Source of the DNA: Prevotellaceae bacterium
Lineage (GTDB): Bacteria; Bacteroidota; Bacteroidia; Bacteroidales; UBA932
Length of the DNA stretch: 24,000 nt
Assembly (NCBI GenBank): GCA_031279475.1
Contig: JAITIL010000070.1
Coordinates: 653 to 24,652 of the forward strand
Direction: 5' to 3'
A program made the position numbers and the translations under genes. The notes beneath the pieces were generated by a model that worked only from the letters and a program-made list of their open reading frames with translations, made no database searches and had not been told where the DNA came from. Positions within the stretch are counted from its first letter, which is position 1, and each line of letters starts with the position of its first letter. Shown here piece by piece: positions 2,147 through 21,779 of the stretch.

Positions 2147-3757
2147 TTAACCAGCCAATTCTATTTTCATAATTTCCTGTTCAAATTGTTCGCTGGGGAC
2201 CAATGCGTGTTTTTTGATTTTCGATTTATACGTATTTATAGTGTGTACCGAATAATTTAAGAATTTGGCAATGCTTTCAACATCCGACACGCCTAAGCGG
2301 ATTAATGCGAATATGCGTATTTCTGGACTAAGTACATGCGCCGATTTGAGCGTGATCTGGTATTCTTCTTTCAACAATAGATTGAATTGCGTAACGAAAT
2401 TGGGGAATATTTTAATAAAAATTTGATCAAACGAATTAAACATTTCTTCCCTGTATTTTTGTATTTCCATTGTTCTTAGTACCCTAAGCGAATCATCATA
2501 CTGTTTGCCCAGCAATTTTTGGGTGATTAATTTTCTGTAGTATTCCAATTTTTCTATAAAGGCGGAATTAACACTAAAAAAATATCCAATATATCCGTTT
2601 TTAATATTATCTACTTCTTTCAATTTATCGTTGATTTGCTTCAATGTTTCATTTTGTTGTTTATTTATTTCACGTGCTTGTTTTAATTGTCTCATCTGTA
2701 TCATAATAACAATTATAGCAACAAGAAATAAAACAAGTAAGACAGAGATTATAATGGAAAAATCAACTAACCACTGGCGTTGTTTATTAATAATATCAAA
2801 TCTTGTTTTTTCAATGATGGGCAACACATCTCCAACTTCTATTTTTCGATGGCGCGCATTATAAAATTCAGCGTCTGCCAGGGCTTCAGTGGCATACTGG
2901 TAAGCATGCTGTAAATCTCCTTTATCATATACGATAGCGGCCAATATACATAGTGCGGGAGTTTCTTTAACTACTGCTTTAATATCGGCAATGGCGGCAT
3001 AACACAAATAAGGGATAGCCTGCACAGTATCTTTCAGTAAAAGATAGAACAGCCCCATACCTCCAGTATTCAACGACTTGTTTCGTTCATTCAAATCCAT
3101 TGTTTCTAATTGTAGTTTTATGCTTTCAATAGCTTGCTGATATTGACATTGGCATCGGTATATATTCACCTTATGCGGAAGGCTTTGCGGATTATCCTCT
3201 CCCTGTAAATCAATAACGAGTTGACTATACTTGATCGATGCCCTGCTATACTCGCTTTGATACGGCTCAACCATTATAGAGTTACTCATATCAAGATTTA
3301 ATTTGGATAGAAAAGAATATAACGCCGTTTTATGATGCAGCGTTAATTCCTTAACATCAATTTTTTGTACTATTTCATTAGACTCTTTGAAAAGCCCTGC
3401 ATTCAAGCAACAATAGGCCATAGATAATTGAGATTCTATAATCTTGTTTTTATCCTTCATTGCAGTGGCCAAATCAAGCATTTTTTCCGTATAAAAATAG
3501 GCTTGCTCATAGTTATACAACTGATATTCTTCATACAGCTTTACATACAAATCATATTTTTTGTTAGGCTGAATATTAGACCTTTGCAATATTATTTTCA
3601 AGGAGTCAATATGCATTATTTTGGTTCGCTCATAAACACGCTTATGTTTAAGTGCCGCATCTAATTCTTGCAGGTTACTTTGCGTAAAATCGATTTGGCA
3701 AAAAGCAAATATTTCAGATAGAGGCAGAATTAAAAATAAAAACAATGTAAACTTCAT
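2147..3757 (-). CDS. Membrane-anchored TPR-like sensor with C-terminal LuxR-type HTH (DUF6377-like transcriptional regulator)
   Basis: 536-aa ORF. It has an N-terminal signal peptide (MKFTLFLFLILPLSEIFAFCQ) and a long helical-repeat region. One TM helix follows (FSIIISVLLVLFLVAIIVIMI), then a coiled coil (QMRQLKQAREINKQQNETLKQINDKLKE). The C-terminus is an HTH (LSPEIRIFALIRLGVSDVESIAKFLNYSVHTINTYKSKIKKH). This architecture and its position next to susC are typical of Bacteroidota PUL regulators. The gene is very AT-rich. Confidence 0.75.
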   Translation of the reverse strand: MKFTLFLFLILPLSEIFAFCQIDFTQSNLQELDAALKHKRVYERTKIMHIDSLKIILQRSNIQPNKKYDLYVKLYEEYQLYNYEQAYFYTEKMLDLATAMKDKNKIIESQLSMAYCCLNAGLFKESNEIVQKIDVKELTLHHKTALYSFLSKLNLDMSNSIMVEPYQSEYSRASIKYSQLVIDLQGEDNPQSLPHKVNIYRCQCQYQQAIESIKLQLETMDLNERNKSLNTGGMGLFYLLLKDTVQAIPYLCYAAIADIKAVVKETPALCILAAIVYDKGDLQHAYQYATEALADAEFYNARHRKIEVGDVLPIIEKTRFDIINKQRQWLVDFSIIISVLLVLFLVAIIVIMIQMRQLKQAREINKQQNETLKQINDKLKEVDNIKNGYIGYFFSVNSAFIEKLEYYRKLITQKLLGKQYDDSLRVLRTMEIQKYREEMFNSFDQIFIKIFPNFVTQFNLLLKEEYQITLKSAHVLSPEIRIFALIRLGVSDVESIAKFLNYSVHTINTYKSKIKKHALVPSEQFEQEIMKIELAG

Positions 3758-3884
3758 GGCTATAGTTTTTATTAGAACCGATGTGCAATTATACGAAAAA
3801 TTTACAACACCAAATTACTGCCGTAAAATTTCTTTTAATTTTAAATGTTTTTTTCAATAAATGCGAAAATAATAATAATTTTTG

Positions 3885-3892
3885 TATTTTTG
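3885..3892 (+). promoter_or_regulatory. Candidate -7 promoter box (TATTTTTG) for the AraC-family gene
   Basis: Matches TAnnTTTG and lies 49 nt upstream of the ATG at 3941, in the divergent intergenic region 3758..3940. Confidence 0.3.
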
Positions 3893-3940
3893 CACTAAAA
3901 TAACCTGTTCTTTTTTAAAACCTAACCAACTTTTACATCC

Positions 3941-4825
3941 ATGAATAATCTTACTTCTATCCGTGAGATTACACCGCTATCTGCAAAAGATTGTTTTTAT
4001 ATTGCCGACCGGCAAAAAACAGCATTCACTTATCCTATTCATACCCACAATGAATTTGAACTGAATTTTATTGCACAAGCGCCCGGTGTGAAAAGAATTG
4101 TGGGTGATTCTATTGAAATCATCGGCGAATACGACCTGGTGCTTATTACCAGCAAGGATTTGGAACACGTGTGGGAGCAACACGAGTGCCGGTCGCCCCA
4201 CATTCGTGAGATTACCATACAGTTTTCGCCCGACTTGTTTTTTGCCAATTTCATCGACAAAAACCAGTTCGGCACCATCCGCAGGATGTTGCAAAAGGCG
4301 CAGAAAGGGTTGTCTTTCCCTATGGAGGCCGTTTTGAAAACATACGGGTTGTTGGATAAATTATCGGGCAAGCAAGGTTTTTATGCGGTGCTTGATTTCT
4401 TAACCATCCTCTACGAACTCTCCCTGTTCAGCGACGAAGCGCGGACATTGTCAAGTTCTTCTTTTGCAAAAACAAGCGTACAGTCCGACAGTCGCCGCGT
4501 GCAAAAAGTGCAAGAGTACATTAATGCACACTACAAAGAGGAAATCCGCTTGAGCGAGTTGGCCGACATCATCAAGATGACGCCGGTGGCGTTTAGCCGC
4601 TTCTTCAAACTGCGCACCAGTGAAACGCTGATGGACTACATTATCGATATTCGTTTAGGGCATGCTACCCGCCTGTTGGTCGACTCCACTATGTCTATTT
4701 CCGAAATATGTTACGACTGCGGTTTTAATAATATTTCCAATTTTAACCGTATCTTCAAGAAGAAAAAGAATTGTTCGCCTAAAGAATTTCGTGAAAATTA
4801 CCGGAAGAAAAAAGTCGTAGTGTAG
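3941..4825 (+). CDS. AraC-family transcriptional regulator (N-terminal cupin-like sensor domain, C-terminal double HTH)
   Basis: 294-aa ORF. The N-terminal part carries YPIHTHNEFELNF and DLVLITSKDLEH (cupin/AraC ligand-binding type). The C-terminal part carries IRLSELADIIKMTPVAFSRFFK and SISEICYDCGFNNISNFNRIFKKKKNCSPKEFR (AraC HTH signature). Confidence 0.9.
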   Translation: MNNLTSIREITPLSAKDCFYIADRQKTAFTYPIHTHNEFELNFIAQAPGVKRIVGDSIEIIGEYDLVLITSKDLEHVWEQHECRSPHIREITIQFSPDLFFANFIDKNQFGTIRRMLQKAQKGLSFPMEAVLKTYGLLDKLSGKQGFYAVLDFLTILYELSLFSDEARTLSSSSFAKTSVQSDSRRVQKVQEYINAHYKEEIRLSELADIIKMTPVAFSRFFKLRTSETLMDYIIDIRLGHATRLLVDSTMSISEICYDCGFNNISNFNRIFKKKKNCSPKEFRENYRKKKVVV

Positions 4826-15409: not shown

Positions 15410-17698
15410 TCACAGTTTTTTCCGCAACGCAATGCCAAACTGTAGCGGCAGCCCTTGCTGCGCAAACGAGTTGCCGTTAATTCCATTAAAATAAAACAAA
15501 TTGTAAACGGCGCTTGTCATGTTTTTACCCCAAGCCGTAATGGAAAATTTATTTTTTTCAACCGTCACCGAAGCATCCAACAGGCCGTAAAAATCCTGCA
15601 CGGCGTCGTTGCTTTCGGTGAAATAAATTTTCCCCAGCCCCGTGTATTGTGCGCCCACCGTAAGGCGCTCCAGCCAAACATGGCGAAATTCGAACACATA
15701 TTCCGCACCGGCCGAGAGGGTGTGTCGCGGCACAAAAGGGATGTACTTTCCCCGATAATCTACCGATACCGGTTGTTGTTGATTGTCAATTTTTATGGAG
15801 TCACCATATTGCAAAAAAGCGGCGTGGGTATATCCATAATTAACCGTAGCCGAAAAATTGTTTATTGAGCCTCTCAGGGATATTTCCGCTCCGTAGCTTT
15901 GCGACTGTCCGGCATTTTTCATCATCCTGCCCAGCCCGCTGGGAACGAATTGCGTAATTTGCTGGTCGCGGCTATCAATGTAAAACAGCGACGCTTCCGC
16001 CCGCAACCGGTTTCGGAAAAACGCCGCCCGTGCGCCGGCTTCGTAATTCCAGCTGTACTCGGGCTTGTAGGCAATAAGTCCGGCGTCTACCGTAGTGTTT
16101 TTCGTTTGCGTTTCGGGCGTCTTTGCCAATGTCTCCAATTCGCTTTGCAGCACATCCGAGAACAGTTGAAAATTATAGCCGCCGGCACGATAGCCGCGGC
16201 TCACCGATACGTAAACCCGGTTCCCGGCGGTCAATTCATAATTCAAGGTGAACTTGGGCGAAAACTGAAGAAACGATTGCTCGTCCTCGCCGCTAACGTT
16301 CACGCCAATGCGGTAATCGAGCGGTGTTACGGTGTAAGGCGGACGCGGTATGGTCATTGTGCCTTGAACAGGAAAATCCAAAGCGTACGTGGCGTGGTTT
16401 ATGGAAATTTTTTCATAATCAAACCTCACGCCAGCCGTCGCTGTGAGCTTATCGAAAAGAAACCGGCGGAATGTGGATTGATGAAACAGCGATATGCCGA
16501 ATGACGGCGTGGTGTAGCGACCCGACGAATAACAGTCGTCCACCACCCAAAGTTTAACAGGGGCGCTCGGCGGTATTTGTGAAAAAATTAGCCGGTCGAA
16601 GAAATCTTTTTTCAATGTTACCGGCGCATCGGTAGCCAGCCCTTTGTAGAAACCGAATGTGCCGAACAGCCACTGATACCTCCCCTCTCCGACCGATTGG
16701 GCAACGATTTCCTGCGTGAAGGCGTGCTGGCGTTGTAGCTGTCCCAAAGTAAAAAGATTGTCGGGACGGAAGTCCTGGTCCATTTTCATCGCATCGTCAA
16801 AATACTGGTACGACGTGGCGCTTGCTATGGTGTAGCCACCTCCCCGGTATTGCACATACAGGCTGTTCACAAGCCATTGCCGCACATAGCTCGACTCGTC
16901 GTTGTAGCTGATACTGTCGCCCGCATTGCCCTGTGCGCTCGCCAAGCCATACGGATAGCCGTTTTGCCGGCTGCTTTCGCCGCTGATAATATAATTCAAT
17001 TGCCAATAATCGTTGATTTTCCAATCGAGACGGAGGCGCAATCCAAACGACTGAAGCGCGCCAGCCGGCGTATTGGTAAACCGGTTGGTGAAGAAACCGT
17101 CAGACTTTTTGTAGGTCATACTTGCCGAAACCCCAATGTTTTCAGCGGGTTTGTCGCTATACGCAAAATTGGATTGCAGGGTGTTCCCATTTCCGTACAA
17201 CAGGAAAAACTTCGTTCCCTGTTGCGAGAGCGGCGACGGCGTATAAATATTAATGATGCCTCCCATCGTATTACGTCCGTACAGTGCGCCCTGTGGCCCG
17301 CGCAGCACCTCAATGCCGGCGAGGTTGTAGAAATCGAAATCATACATGCTCTTGTCCAAATACGGAATATTATCCACATAAAGTCCCACAGCCGGGTCGT
17401 TCATGCGCGAACCAACCCCCCTGATATAAATGGCCGACGTGAGTTTTGCGCCGTAACCGGGCATGTAAAAATTGGGCGTCATGCCCGTTAATTTTGTGGG
17501 CGCGTCAATGGCATTCTTCTCGATAACCCCTGCTGCGAAAGCCGAACAGGCTGCCGGAATATTTTCAATGGAATCTGTTTTTTTGTAGGAGTAAAAATTT
17601 ATTTCTTTTAGTTCAATTGTTTTTACAATATCTGTTGTTTGTTGTGCGTAAAGCCCGCCGGATATAAAGAACAGGAATAGCGTTAATTTATTTGTCAT
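15410..17698 (-). CDS. TonB-dependent outer-membrane receptor (stand-alone, siderophore/metal/cofactor type; no SusD partner)
   Basis: 762 aa with a signal peptide (MTNKLTLFLFFISGGLYAQQ). Plug motifs are present (IRGVGSRMNDPAVGLYVDNIPY, IEVLRGPQGALYGRNTMGGIINIYT). A long beta-barrel rich in alternating aromatic/polar residues follows. It lacks the carboxypeptidase-regulatory domain of SusC proteins. Confidence 0.9.
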   Translation of the reverse strand: MTNKLTLFLFFISGGLYAQQTTDIVKTIELKEINFYSYKKTDSIENIPAACSAFAAGVIEKNAIDAPTKLTGMTPNFYMPGYGAKLTSAIYIRGVGSRMNDPAVGLYVDNIPYLDKSMYDFDFYNLAGIEVLRGPQGALYGRNTMGGIINIYTPSPLSQQGTKFFLLYGNGNTLQSNFAYSDKPAENIGVSASMTYKKSDGFFTNRFTNTPAGALQSFGLRLRLDWKINDYWQLNYIISGESSRQNGYPYGLASAQGNAGDSISYNDESSYVRQWLVNSLYVQYRGGGYTIASATSYQYFDDAMKMDQDFRPDNLFTLGQLQRQHAFTQEIVAQSVGEGRYQWLFGTFGFYKGLATDAPVTLKKDFFDRLIFSQIPPSAPVKLWVVDDCYSSGRYTTPSFGISLFHQSTFRRFLFDKLTATAGVRFDYEKISINHATYALDFPVQGTMTIPRPPYTVTPLDYRIGVNVSGEDEQSFLQFSPKFTLNYELTAGNRVYVSVSRGYRAGGYNFQLFSDVLQSELETLAKTPETQTKNTTVDAGLIAYKPEYSWNYEAGARAAFFRNRLRAEASLFYIDSRDQQITQFVPSGLGRMMKNAGQSQSYGAEISLRGSINNFSATVNYGYTHAAFLQYGDSIKIDNQQQPVSVDYRGKYIPFVPRHTLSAGAEYVFEFRHVWLERLTVGAQYTGLGKIYFTESNDAVQDFYGLLDASVTVEKNKFSITAWGKNMTSAVYNLFYFNGINGNSFAQQGLPLQFGIALRKKL

Positions 17699-17770
17699 GT
17701 AGTATCAGCAGTATAAAAATATTATCAAGCATTTTATTGTCAATGAGTTTCGTGTTTTTTTTTGTACACT

Positions 17771-17807
17771 AATTTTGTTACAAAAATACGGTTTTTTTTC
17801 GACAAAA
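17771..17807. repeat. Copy A of a 37-bp repeated element (AATTTTGTTACAAAAATACGGTTTTTTTTCGACAAAA)
   Basis: 34/37 identical to 21707..21743 in the same orientation. It contains the palindrome TTTTGT-T-ACAAAA (17773..17785). On the minus strand it contains a TAnnTTTG box (TATTTTTG, plus coordinates 17781..17788), 83 nt upstream of the receptor ATG at 17698. Confidence 0.8.
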
Positions 17808-17942
17808 AAACAAAGTGGATAATTGTCAAATTTACATTTTTTTAACATAATATGTAAAAAATAATGGGGATCATATTAAAAAATATACAAAAATTTAACT
17901 TAATCATATTAAAAATATGGGGGTACTATTAAAAAAAGTGCA

Positions 17943-17950
17943 TATATTTG
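17943..17950 (+). promoter_or_regulatory. Candidate -7 promoter box (TATATTTG) for glnK-amtB
   Basis: Matches TAnnTTTG and lies 43 nt upstream of the ATG at 17993. The TTG 'start' of the track ORF (17948) lies inside this box. Confidence 0.35.
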
Positions 17951-17992
17951 CACTTTGATAATAAAAATTATTACACATTAATATTTAAGATT

Positions 17993-18355
17993 ATGAAAAA
18001 AATTGAAGCTATTATTCGCAAAACCAAATTTGATGAGGTAAAAGAAGCTTTGATGGCGGCAGACATTGAATGGTTTTCGTATTCGGAAGTAAAGGGCGTC
18101 GGTAAAGACAGGGAAGAAAGAATCTACCGGGGCATTGTGTATGATACGAGTTCTATCGAACGGTATCAGTTGAGTATTATTGTCCGCGACGTGAATCTGG
18201 AAAAAGCGATTCAAGCCATTGAAAAGGCTGCCCGCACAGGTGAAATCGGCGACGGACGGATTTTTATTTTTCCCGCCGAAGATGCGATTAGTATCCGTTC
18301 CGGAAAAAGAGGGGATGCTACCTTATTTATTGATGATAAAAAAGTAACTAACTAA
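17993..18355 (+). CDS. glnK: P-II nitrogen regulatory protein (GlnK type, linked to amtB)
   Basis: ORF 17948..18355, with the ATG at 17993 preferred (MKKIEAIIRKTKFDEVKEALMAADIEWFSYSEVKGVGKD...). It shows the P-II fold signature, including a T-loop region with Tyr (ERIYRGIVYD). The C-terminal block TGEIGDGRIFIFPAEDAISIRSGKRG is also present. It ends 14 nt upstream of the ammonium transporter gene. Confidence 0.9.
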   Translation: MKKIEAIIRKTKFDEVKEALMAADIEWFSYSEVKGVGKDREERIYRGIVYDTSSIERYQLSIIVRDVNLEKAIQAIEKAARTGEIGDGRIFIFPAEDAISIRSGKRGDATLFIDDKKVTN

Positions 18356-19704: not shown

Positions 19705-20397
19705 ATGAAAAAGTTAATTTTTGTATTAGCGGTTCTGGTTGGAGCCGGCAGTGTTAAAGCCCAGGACAAAGGTTTGAATTTTTCGCTGGGAGCGGACTTG
19801 GTTAGTTCGTATGTGTGGCGGGGCACGTATCAAACAAAAACCGCTTTTCAGCCCACAGCGGGTTTAAGCTTAGGCAATTTTTCATTATCGGCATGGGCGA
19901 GCACGGAGTTTACCGGACCACAGAAAGAAGTCGATTTCACTGTGGGGTATAGCGTTGCCGGCTTGTCGCTGGCTATCACAGATTACTGGTGGTCGGGCGA
20001 ACAAGCTTATAAATATTTGAAATACGATAGCGGAACGGCGCATTATTGGGAGGGAAGCCTGAGTTATGTCTTGCCCGTGAAGTCTTTTCCATTGAGTCTT
20101 AGCATAAACACCATGTTTGCCGGGGCCGACAAGAAAGAGGGGGGAAACAAAAATAATTTTTCTACTTACATCGAAGTTTCTTTACCATTTACAATTAAAG
20201 AGGTCGACTTAAATGTGGGTCTTGGCGCCACGCCGGAAAAAGGACTTTACGCCTCACAAGCGTCTGTGGTCAATATCAACTTGAAAGCAAGTAAAGAAAT
20301 TAAAATTACGGACAGTTTTTCTTTGCCGGTTTTTGGACAGATAATCCTTAATCCTAATCAGGAGGATATCTTTTTTGTATTCGGATTTAGTTTATAG
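19705..20397 (+). CDS. Small outer-membrane beta-barrel protein (TorF/Gcw_chp-like putative porin)
   Basis: 230 aa with a signal peptide (MKKLIFVLAVLVGAGSVKAQ). The family-like N-terminal block is LGADLVSSYVWRGTYQTKTAFQPTAGLSLGNFSLSAWAS. It has an alternating beta-strand pattern and a terminal aromatic-rich strand (FFVFGFSL). Porins of this type commonly follow amtB. Confidence 0.7.
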   Translation: MKKLIFVLAVLVGAGSVKAQDKGLNFSLGADLVSSYVWRGTYQTKTAFQPTAGLSLGNFSLSAWASTEFTGPQKEVDFTVGYSVAGLSLAITDYWWSGEQAYKYLKYDSGTAHYWEGSLSYVLPVKSFPLSLSINTMFAGADKKEGGNKNNFSTYIEVSLPFTIKEVDLNVGLGATPEKGLYASQASVVNINLKASKEIKITDSFSLPVFGQIILNPNQEDIFFVFGFSL

Positions 20398-20464
20398 ATG
20401 AGGAATTATAGCGTCATATTGATGCTTATCCTATGTCTTACCAAGCATTTTGGCATATATTACC

Positions 20465-20881
20465 TTATGCAGATATTTCTTCTAATTCTTCTAAAGTTCC
20501 TTTAAAAAATTGGGCAGGAATTATTAATGTTCCTATTATCCCCGCATTAGCAGTTAGTGTTGTAATAAATGAGCGAATATAAGGAAACATAATAGCGGGA
20601 GCGTTTGCATTAACAAATTTTTTCTTCAATTCGTCGGATAATTCATCATTTAGTTCAAAGTGCCCAATAGCGCGTAGTCTTAAAGTAAAATAGCGCTCAT
20701 CTTTTAGTTCTATTTCCGTTACAACCTTAAATAGATATTTATTATCTTTTGGATAAAACACTCGTGGAGTGCTATCGATTTTTATATCCATCTTGTCTTC
20801 CGGAGTTGTTATAGCATGAAAATCGACATCTAAAATATCAACCCCATGGAATGTTAATTTTGTTTGGTGAGATACTTCCAT
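20465..20881 (-). CDS. SecB-like chaperone (third gene of the cassette)
   Basis: 138 aa. It is collinear with E. coli SecB as I recall it. LTFHGVDILDVDFHA corresponds to FQIQRIYTKDISFEA. NANAPAIMFPYIRSFITTLTANAGIIGTLIIPAQFF corresponds to [37 protein letters not shown]. It has an acidic C-terminal tail (LEELEEISA). Its ATG (20881..20879) overlaps the upstream stop codon by 1 nt (TAATG). Confidence 0.75.
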   Translation of the reverse strand: MEVSHQTKLTFHGVDILDVDFHAITTPEDKMDIKIDSTPRVFYPKDNKYLFKVVTEIELKDERYFTLRLRAIGHFELNDELSDELKKKFVNANAPAIMFPYIRSFITTLTANAGIIGTLIIPAQFFKGTLEELEEISA

Positions 20882-21117
20882 TATGCTGCTAATTGGTAGT
20901 CATTGGGGATATCACAGGTTTCTACAGTAGTCAAAACACTATTGGTGTTTTGCTTAAAAATAATTGATGTTGGGGCGAGCGCTTCAAAATAGCCATCGCC
21001 TAAAAATGCTGATAAATTTCTATCCCGTTGATTTAATAACCATTCCGTTAAACTTTCTGTAGTTTCGCTTGCAAGGGCTTCGTCTATGCTTTGTTCAAGT
21101 TTGTGTAAATCTAACAT
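20881..21117 (-). CDS. Small strongly acidic protein (78 aa), candidate chaperone-dependent antitoxin
   Basis: MLDLHKLEQSIDEALASETTESLTEWLLNQRDRNLSAFLGDGYFEALAPTSIIFKQNTNSVLTTVETCDIPNDYQLAA. I count about 13 D/E against 4 K/R. The N-terminal half looks helical and the C-terminal half is beta-prone and hydrophobic. It starts 16 nt after the upstream gene and its stop overlaps the SecB-like start. No HTH/RHH motif is evident. Confidence 0.6.
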   Translation of the reverse strand: MLDLHKLEQSIDEALASETTESLTEWLLNQRDRNLSAFLGDGYFEALAPTSIIFKQNTNSVLTTVETCDIPNDYQLAA

Positions 21118-21133
21118 AGTTATGTGTTTTTAG

Positions 21134-21619
21134 TTACACCTCATGGGTAGCATGAAGTGCAAAGTTATGAATAATTTTTAATTTATATGCGACTAATTGA
21201 ATGCGTTTACGATAATTAAAATTTATCACCAGTAAATCAGTGCTATGCGGCAAATCCTGAAACATAATGCCATCAGTCAGGTTTTCCCATTTTGCTTTTT
21301 CTTTAAAATACTGATTTATTTCACTTATCGTAGGCTTTATATTTGTTTTTTTTATTATATATTTTGCGGCTTTTTCAATTTGCTTGATCCAAAATTTATA
21401 ATGTTCTTCATTAAATACAGTGTCCAATATATTTTCGCAGCTAATAGTAGCGGAGTAAATTTCAAAATATCCGGTTTTTCTTTTACTATTGCCGCCCCAA
21501 TGGAGGGCATCTATCTCATCATTCCAAAAATAATAACCATCTCCCAACCACGCATCACATTTATTACACATAACAGGAGCGTTCAGTAATCGACTCCTCT
21601 TTTCTTGCGTATGATACAT
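21134..21619 (-). CDS. DUF3990-like protein (162 aa), candidate toxin; possibly ADP-ribosyltransferase-like fold
   Basis: Track ORF 21134..21778 (GTG start). I prefer the ATG at 21619 (MYHTQEKRSRLL...) because a TAnnTTTG box (21652..21659) and the 37-bp element lie inside the longer version. The block order YH(3), LGDGYYFWNDEIDALHWG, GYFEIYS, NEEHYKFWIKQI resembles DUF3990/PF13151 as I remember it (YHGS, FGxGFYxT....A..WA, .E.Y.., ..W..FI). This assignment is from memory and unverified. Confidence 0.55.
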   Translation of the reverse strand: MYHTQEKRSRLLNAPVMCNKCDAWLGDGYYFWNDEIDALHWGGNSKRKTGYFEIYSATISCENILDTVFNEEHYKFWIKQIEKAAKYIIKKTNIKPTISEINQYFKEKAKWENLTDGIMFQDLPHSTDLLVINFNYRKRIQLVAYKLKIIHNFALHATHEV

Positions 21620-21651
21620 TAATCGCCTCAATGTGAAAATAATATAGGTTA

Positions 21652-21659
21652 CAAAAGTA
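21652..21659 (-). promoter_or_regulatory. Candidate -7 promoter box (TACTTTTG on minus strand) for the three-gene cassette
   Basis: The plus strand reads caaaagta, whose reverse complement TACTTTTG fits TAnnTTTG. It lies 33 nt upstream of the ATG at 21619. Confidence 0.35.
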
Positions 21660-21706
21660 GGTAATGACGCCGAAAACGGTTCTAATGCCTTTATTGTTTT
21701 ATATTT

Positions 21707-21743
21707 AATTTTGTCACAAAAATATAGTTTTTTTTCGACAAAA
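21707..21743. repeat. Copy B of the 37-bp repeated element (AATTTTGTCACAAAAATATAGTTTTTTTTCGACAAAA)
   Basis: 34/37 identical to 17771..17807 in the same orientation. It contains the palindrome TTTTGT-C-ACAAAA (21709..21721) and a minus-strand TATTTTTG box (plus coordinates 21717..21724). It lies between the metF stop (21780) and the cassette start (21619). Confidence 0.8.
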
Positions 21744-21779
21744 CAAAACATTGTCGGTGTGTTATAACGGAAAACCACG

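Follow-up and report, generated by a model that had tools for sequence, protein, structure and literature searches.

CmdTAC, as PD-T4-9 has been renamed (PMC9519451), is a toxin–antitoxin–chaperone (TAC) anti-phage system of Escherichia coli, of which two independently characterised examples, both mRNA-targeting, have been described (PMC11618068; bioRxiv 10.1101/2024.02.24.581848). Its toxin CmdT has been shown experimentally to be an NAD+-dependent RNA ADP-ribosyltransferase (ART) with an H-Y-[E/D/Q] triad (PMC11618068). CmdT acts on the N6 of adenine at GA dinucleotides in single-stranded RNA, and translation is blocked; the antitoxin CmdA, which has a C-terminal LAA, is degraded via ClpXP/ClpP; and the SecB-like chaperone CmdC shields CmdA until a phage capsid protein titrates CmdC (PMC11618068; bioRxiv 10.1101/2024.02.24.581848). 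The authors call a system where CmdT and CmdC lie within two genes, with CmdA free to vary (PMC11618068, PMC9519451 methods). Here, a related locus was analysed in a Prevotellaceae bacterium, namely the toxin gene at positions 21134-21619 of a stretch of 24,000 nucleotides (nt) from contig JAITIL010000070.1 (this whole stretch is referred to as the window) and the two genes downstream of it. The results showed that the toxin is a member of the already described CmdT family, one new representative of a large Bacteroidota CmdTAC clade, and that the locus is very probably a CmdTAC-type TAC module.

Scanning of the toxin with PADLOC gave a match to PD-T4-9_A (PDLC04068) with an E-value (E) of 1.1e-16 (59.5 bits) and a second one to PDLC04069 with E 1.5e-10. 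The wider family was represented by 66 diverse members from an exhaustive search, which also formed the 66-sequence alignment used for conservation counts, and all of them (66/66) matched PD-T4-9_A, with a best E of 3.2e-75. As a reference, a cmdTAC operon almost identical to the published one was found with the published cloning and mutagenesis primers (PMC11618068 supplement) in E. coli N2250 (NZ_CP189474.1; positions 2905-4118 of locus L082). The start of its first gene is an exact copy of the 25-nt cmdT segment in primer CV111, and primer CV109 is represented by its right half; the operon is set in a P2-like prophage with a DinI-like gene on one side and a portal gene on the other, as in the literature. 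Its products are a protein of 192 amino acids (aa), one of 77 aa ending in DLAA, and a 129-aa SecB-like protein; in the database these are annotated merely as hypothetical, hypothetical and 'protein-export chaperone SecB'. BLASTP of the window toxin against the E. coli CmdT-like protein showed 23% identity over 128 aa (E 2e-9), and a close-family hidden Markov model (HMM), searched against all six-frame open reading frames (ORFs) of the E. coli locus, detected CmdT with 28.9 bits (E 5e-9). Taken together, the pairwise, profile and PADLOC matches indicate that the toxin and E. coli CmdT form one continuous family.

The chaperone gave a concordant result. It matched Pfam SecB with 33.4 bits (cut-off 26) and PADLOC PD-T4-9_C with E 1.4e-14, and showed 36% identity over 56 aa to the E. 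coli CmdC-like protein in BLASTP (E 2e-9). This CmdC homologue (20465-20881) lies two genes downstream of the toxin, which is within the two-gene distance of the authors' calling rule, and routine PADLOC defence annotation would already call the system. NCBIfam and Pfam scans of the toxin yielded nothing meaningful, the NCBIfam HAD REG-2 match (15.6 bits versus a cut-off of 155) being noise, and sequence searches of the PDB with the single toxin sequence and with the 66-sequence profile found no relative. A tblastn search of the phage collection with one distant family member also returned nothing; the PHROGs phage protein families include T-like and C-like ones.

Conservation within the 66-sequence alignment was then compared with the published mutagenesis of CmdT. 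Y30 was the sole invariant column, and eleven further positions (Y2, P15, W24, L25, G26, F31, W32, A38, W41, G42 and Q141) were conserved in at least 90% of the sequences. Residue 3 was H in 51 sequences and Q in 15. Q141 was kept in 64/66 and aligned with the Gln of 'PEQMV' in the E. coli protein. The published Y41A primers (GGT TAC GCG TTT TGG) alter the second Tyr of G-Y-Y-F-W, and this Tyr aligned with Y30; it is residue 43 in the E. coli N2250 copy, a two-residue numbering offset relative to the paper. From this alignment, H3, Y30 and Q141 are likely to make up the catalytic triad, and Y55 may be a second NAD-stacking Tyr, analogous to diphtheria toxin Y65 and PARP1 Y907. An initial annotation, made from the raw sequence, had proposed an ART-type toxin with an H-Y-E-type signature. 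That proposal was a good one, as CmdT-family membership (the PD-T4-9_A match given above) supports it, and Y30, which it had flagged, is both invariant family-wide and aligned with the published catalytic Tyr. Its choice of E53 as the catalytic acid did not hold, as this position varies freely (E, D, Q, H, I, S, V, M and others) and the conserved third position is Q141. Five residues, E71, Y74, W77, Q121 and D122, were strictly conserved in the Bacteroidota clade but lost from the distant branch that is closest to E. coli CmdT; E71 and Q121/D122 were dropped as candidates for the third catalytic residue because of this loss, whereas Q141 is retained in that branch. The residues worth mutating are thus H3, Y30 and Q141, with Y55 as an extra, instead of E53. 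By analogy with CmdT, the toxin is probably an active ART.

The AlphaFold2 (AF2) model of the toxin, built with a 46-sequence alignment, had a mean predicted local distance difference test (pLDDT) score of 91.1 and a predicted template modelling (pTM) score of 0.84, with strands at residues 2-6, 28-32, 51-59, 64-66, 117-121, 140-144 and 150-160 and a helical insertion at 71-114. Foldseek searches of BFVD, a viral structure library, retrieved ART-PolyVal proteins (E 4e-4 to 5e-3, probability 0.99-1.0). Against the PDB no single match was significant (best E 0.028), and ranks 2-47 were nearly all ART domains of PARP1/2/4 plus the NatT toxin (E 0.07-2); a weak Pfam PARP match was also seen in one relative. 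These results suggest that the toxin fold, compact and confidently predicted, has a weak similarity to ADP-ribosyltransferases. The CmdT authors likewise obtained only a loose match, to exotoxin A (root-mean-square deviation 6.9 Å). The predicted fold weakly resembles that of the H-Y-E ARTs (diphtheria toxin, exotoxin A, PARP) and of phage ART-PolyVal proteins, and the order of the catalytic motifs agrees with theirs. However, the third catalytic position is Glu in the H-Y-E enzymes and probably Gln here, the 71-114 insertion is present here, the target here would by homology be RNA rather than protein, and structural similarity is low (TM-score 0.3-0.5). The DarTG system is likewise a toxin–antitoxin phage defence based on a nucleic-acid ADP-ribosyltransferase toxin, but DarT modifies thymidine in single-stranded DNA and is countered by a macrodomain glycohydrolase, and the system has no chaperone and no degron-tailed antitoxin. 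In the BFVD search, DarT first appeared at rank 50 (E 0.88).

As the initial annotation had described, the neighbours of the toxin are a 78-aa acidic protein (13 D/E versus 4 K/R; isoelectric point 4.1) and a chaperone. The three genes are co-directional, the gap between the toxin and antitoxin genes is 16 nt, and the antitoxin stop codon overlaps the chaperone ATG (TAATG); this spacing and overlap suggest that they form one operon. The 80 related genome loci examined belonged for the most part to Bacteroidales, Chitinophagales, Sphingobacteriales, Flavobacteriales and Saprospiraceae, with some Ignavibacteria and Balneolales. An antitoxin homologue lay directly 3' of the toxin gene in 74/80 loci and a SecB-like homologue came next in 69/80; a contig edge cuts off several of the loci without partner genes. 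The initial annotation had read the neighbours as a case of partner swapping, in which a DUF3990-like effector had moved away from DUF3791. Because both partners are conserved beside the toxin at these frequencies, they are cognate and not swapped, and correspond to the CmdTAC architecture. What stood of that claim is the divergence of the partner: the antitoxin is too divergent to align across the CmdTAC superfamily, and its family profile misses E. coli CmdA.

Two further observations were made on these loci. The toxin was split into two ORFs in L008, L023, L069 and L077, and the chaperone in L012, L042, L074 and L081. The split genes, in about a tenth of the related loci, are apparently frameshifted or pseudogenised, which suggests that the module often decays, although some may be sequencing or assembly errors of metagenome-assembled genomes (MAGs). 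In addition, the contigs of a few close homologues (L011, L020, L027, L031 and L035) had been assigned by binning to a cyanobacterium (Vulcanococcus), Gammaproteobacteria, Thermoguttaceae or archaea, which may reflect mis-binning or recent horizontal transfer; in L020, the ORF spacing was that of the Phaeodactylibacter locus L019, and the antitoxin rows of these two loci were identical.

The antitoxin family has a conserved N-terminal segment of about 30 residues (MLDL..LE..LD.AL..ET.ESL..WL) and an LG.G block, after which come a variable, indel-rich region with F/Y residues and a conserved tail. Among 75 members, the C-terminus was AA in 58 and AS in 7; within these 65 tails, Tyr was found at -5 in 35 and L/M/I at -3 in 42, the common form being Y-x-[LMI]-A-A. 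The tail of the window antitoxin is NDYQLAA, and the bacterial ssrA tag ends in NYALAA. The antitoxin tail thus looks like a built-in mimic of the degradation tag added by transfer-messenger RNA (tmRNA), that is, a putative ssrA/ClpXP-type degron. The window contains no tmRNA or tRNA gene. A single-sequence AF2 model of the antitoxin, of low confidence (pLDDT 59.8), placed helices at residues 4-16 and 23-30, and this two-helix model fits published CmdA, which has paired N-terminal helices followed by an unstructured tail. The 78-aa protein had no match in Pfam. Against E. coli CmdA no BLASTP match was found, the antitoxin-family HMM gave E 0.72, and hhalign gave P 0.043 with a probability of 1.2%. 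The CmdTAC authors describe CmdA as highly variable and do not use it as a calling criterion (PMC11618068), and the missing CmdA homology is therefore not family-defining.

Compared as a whole with CmdTAC of E. coli ECOR22 and O112ab:H26, the locus has the same gene order of toxin, small antitoxin and SecB-like chaperone, with toxin and chaperone homologous by HMM. The catalytic Tyr lies within GYYFW in both toxins, which also share the H / Y / Q pattern, and both antitoxins are acidic proteins of about 77-78 aa with an LAA end. The differences are that the E. coli toxin has 192 aa whereas this one has 161 aa, with its His at residue 3, at the low identity given above; that the antitoxins do not align significantly; and that the E. 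coli systems lie in the hypervariable region of P2-like prophages of Enterobacteria, whereas this one lies in a bare chromosomal islet of a Bacteroidota genome. Other TAC systems (M. tuberculosis HigBA-SecB(TA), E. coli HigBAC and MqsRAC) likewise have a dedicated SecB-like chaperone in an operon with the toxin–antitoxin pair, and in those systems the chaperone guards a protease-sensitive antitoxin with a C-terminal chaperone-addiction region. Their toxins, however, are unrelated, being RNases of the HigB/MqsR type and not ARTs.

Re-examination of the toxin ORF on the minus strand bore out the reading of the initial annotation: translation gave 161 aa beginning with MYH, and all four sequence blocks that it had quoted were found at their residues (MYH at the N-terminus, LGDGYYFWNDEIDALHWG at 25-42, GYFEIYS at 50-56 and NEEHYKFWIKQIEK at 70-83). 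With its start at a GTG further upstream (21778), the mechanically delimited ORF is 214 aa long, and an identical protein in NCBI (P0001, from a Prevotellaceae MAG) is annotated from an upstream start as a "hypothetical protein" of 205 aa. Most homologues among the 120 matches listed were 161-162 aa long, and most of the 30 alignment rows listed began with MYHTQE, implying that the ATG at 21619 is likely the true start. The 44 extra residues of the NCBI annotation (within 21620-21778) would overlap the promoter-like region. A word-indexed search found 306 clusters of toxin homologues at E ≤ 1e-3, and 325 toxin-family representatives at 50% identity came out of an exhaustive HMM search that covered 1.84 billion representatives. 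Judged from this conservation, which is far beyond chance, the toxin gene is real.

The initial annotation had also likened the toxin to DUF3990 (PF13151). On that basis the locus would encode a DUF3990-family effector that lacks its former DUF3791 partner and has gained an unrelated immunity protein and a chaperone. Pfam searches of the toxin gave no match at E ≤ 10, PF13151 included, and the toxin is therefore not a DUF3990 member. What speaks for a connection is that PF13151 was the Pfam family most often matched among the 66 members (6/66, best E 0.0058), and that collinear matches were obtained with residues 32-97 of the relative P0137 (profile positions 19-85; 16.8 bits, the best of the relatives) and with residues 7-80 of the A2 consensus (profile positions 4-78; 16.1 bits), the latter in a scan of family consensus sequences against Pfam that served as a rough substitute for profile–profile comparison with PF13151. 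DUF3990 is, moreover, listed in the Pfam ART clan (PMC7955679). However, the consensus sequences scored 14-16 bits, and relatives and consensus sequences together spanned 12-17 bits, where the gathering cut-off is 32.2; unrelated noise matches scored about the same, the CmdT models matched with E 1e-16, and as antitoxin and SecB-like protein are conserved throughout the family, nothing points to a recent swap. A DUF3990 effector with exchanged partners is accordingly very unlikely. What gives the DUF3990-like look is a signature generic to H-Y-E ARTs, H...GxG(F/Y)YF...W: the two families share the H...G-x-G-(F/Y)-Y-F...A..W(G/A) pattern of the N-terminal ART core and are collinear over the first half of the profile, but the scores are sub-threshold, no DUF3791 neighbour is present here or, as the partners recurring in the 80 related loci indicate, across the family, and the C-terminal halves are unmatched. 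The similarity is consistent with a clan-level relation at most, in which DUF3990 may be a sister ART family of CmdT.

For the CmdTAC-type module, a mechanism can be proposed from that of E. coli CmdTAC (PMC11618068; bioRxiv 10.1101/2024.02.24.581848). In the uninfected cell, the N-terminal helices of the antitoxin would bind and neutralise the toxin and possibly aid its folding, and a putatively disordered, aromatic-containing antitoxin tail would be held by a SecB-like tetramer, hiding the ssrA-like YxLAA degron from ClpXP. Upon infection, a newly made, abundant phage structural protein would compete for the chaperone; the antitoxin would then be degraded by ClpXP and the toxin released. The freed toxin would ADP-ribosylate single-stranded RNA with NAD+ through H3, Y30 and Q141 (the site in E. 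coli being the N6 of adenine in GA dinucleotides), and translation would halt, so that the infection is aborted. By this analogy, a phage-defence role of the operon is reasonably likely, and there is about an even chance that the target is mRNA at GA sites.

Two other accounts of the function were weighed against this mechanism. The toxin might be a CmdT-family ART within a TAC module that has a different target (DNA as for DarT, tRNA, rRNA or protein), or the module might be mainly a selfish addiction element. Identity to E. coli CmdT is just 23%, the five Bacteroidota-clade residues E71, Y74, W77, Q121 and D122 are lost near E. coli CmdT, the locus lies amid housekeeping genes rather than in a defence island or prophage, and the toxin or chaperone gene is frameshifted in about a tenth of the related loci, all of which would agree with such an account. 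On the other hand, the catalytic core and the toxin–antitoxin–chaperone architecture are shared with the two mRNA-targeting E. coli systems (PMC11618068; bioRxiv 10.1101/2024.02.24.581848), and T-like and C-like families are present in PHROGs; a different target or a mainly selfish role is thus considered unlikely. That the protein is no toxin at all, but a conserved small NAD-binding or nucleic-acid-binding housekeeping protein beside which the SecB-like gene stands by coincidence, would be in keeping with the lack of toxicity when E. coli CmdT is expressed by itself (PMC11445053). It is contradicted by the homology to a demonstrated toxin, by the tight linkage to a degron-tailed small protein and a toxin–antitoxin-type SecB, and by the location in a low-GC islet whose insertion site varies among genomes and of which pseudogenised copies are common, and is extremely improbable, slightly more so even than the DUF3990 account.

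The coordinates of the toxin operon and of the elements around it are given in Table 1.

Table 1. Features of the CmdTAC-type locus, in window coordinates
Feature	Position	Strand	Details and evidence
cmdT-like toxin gene, predicted ADP-ribosyltransferase	21134..21619	minus	161 aa + stop; PADLOC, BLASTP, family HMM, AF2, Foldseek
cmdA-like antitoxin gene	20881..21117	minus	78 aa + stop; between toxin gene and SecB-like gene; synteny, degron-like tail ...DYQLAA
cmdC-like SecB-type chaperone gene	20465..20881	minus	138 aa + stop; Pfam SecB, PADLOC PD-T4-9_C
Low-GC islet	20400..21779		about 1.4 kb; about 30-36% GC versus about 47-58% in flanking genes (composition profile)
Promoter-like element	21706..21747	minus	about 100 nt upstream of toxin ATG; consensus match only

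The low-GC islet contains solely the three-gene operon and its upstream region, and lies between metF and a porin-like ORF. The genes further out are of the housekeeping type, encoding thymidylate synthase, dihydrofolate reductase, a TonB-dependent receptor, P-II, an ammonium transporter, methylenetetrahydrofolate reductase and an S9 peptidase. No direct repeats were found at the islet flanks, and the insertion site of the islet varies between genomes. Upstream of the toxin gene, a match to TTTG-N17-23-TAnnTTTG, which we take to be a Bacteroidota promoter pattern, was found at 21717-21747 (minus strand); the window holds 5 such matches versus 1.36 expected. Furthermore, a 36-nt element, TTGTCGAAAAAAAAC-NN-TATTTTTGT-N-ACAAAATTA, occurs twice in the window, both times without a mismatch to the pattern (chance expectation 0), once upstream of the TonB-dependent receptor gene (17770-17805, minus strand) and once upstream of the toxin gene (21706-21741, minus strand). 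It was absent from the 82 comparison loci and may be a candidate genome-specific promoter cassette; if so, the operon would be driven by a host-type promoter. Neither sigma-70 promoter enrichment nor an intrinsic terminator was found.

Two side observations concern the neighbouring region. The 230-aa product of the ORF at 19705-20397 (plus strand) looks like a signal peptide at its N-terminus and like a beta-barrel at its C-terminus, which ends in F-x-F; it has no Pfam match at E ≤ 1e-5. It may be an outer-membrane porin linked to ammonium uptake, since the P-II and ammonium-transporter genes precede it. A very AT-rich intergenic stretch (17600-18050; GC 21-25%) separates the TonB-dependent receptor gene from the divergently oriented P-II/amt operon.

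In the Bacteroidota clade to which this protein belongs, the toxins are compact (161 aa) and fall into about 300 clusters at 90% identity. It is a tentative and on balance doubtful idea that this clade is a functionally distinct CmdTAC branch, in which the SecB-like protein would act as a sensor for a structural protein of Bacteroidota phages and the toxin would perhaps have an RNA-sequence or nucleic-acid specificity other than GA/N6-adenine. If DUF3990 and CmdT are true sister families, DUF3990/DUF3791 pairs are predicted to be nucleic-acid ADP-ribosylating toxin–antitoxin pairs as well. The current understanding of CmdTAC is unchanged by these findings. For this organism, a 'hypothetical protein' and its two neighbours gain a specific, testable function as a putative RNA ADP-ribosylating abortive-infection module, and for the family, the results indicate that within Bacteroidota and Ignavibacteria, gut and termite-gut lineages included, there is a large and well-conserved clade of CmdTAC-type defence systems.

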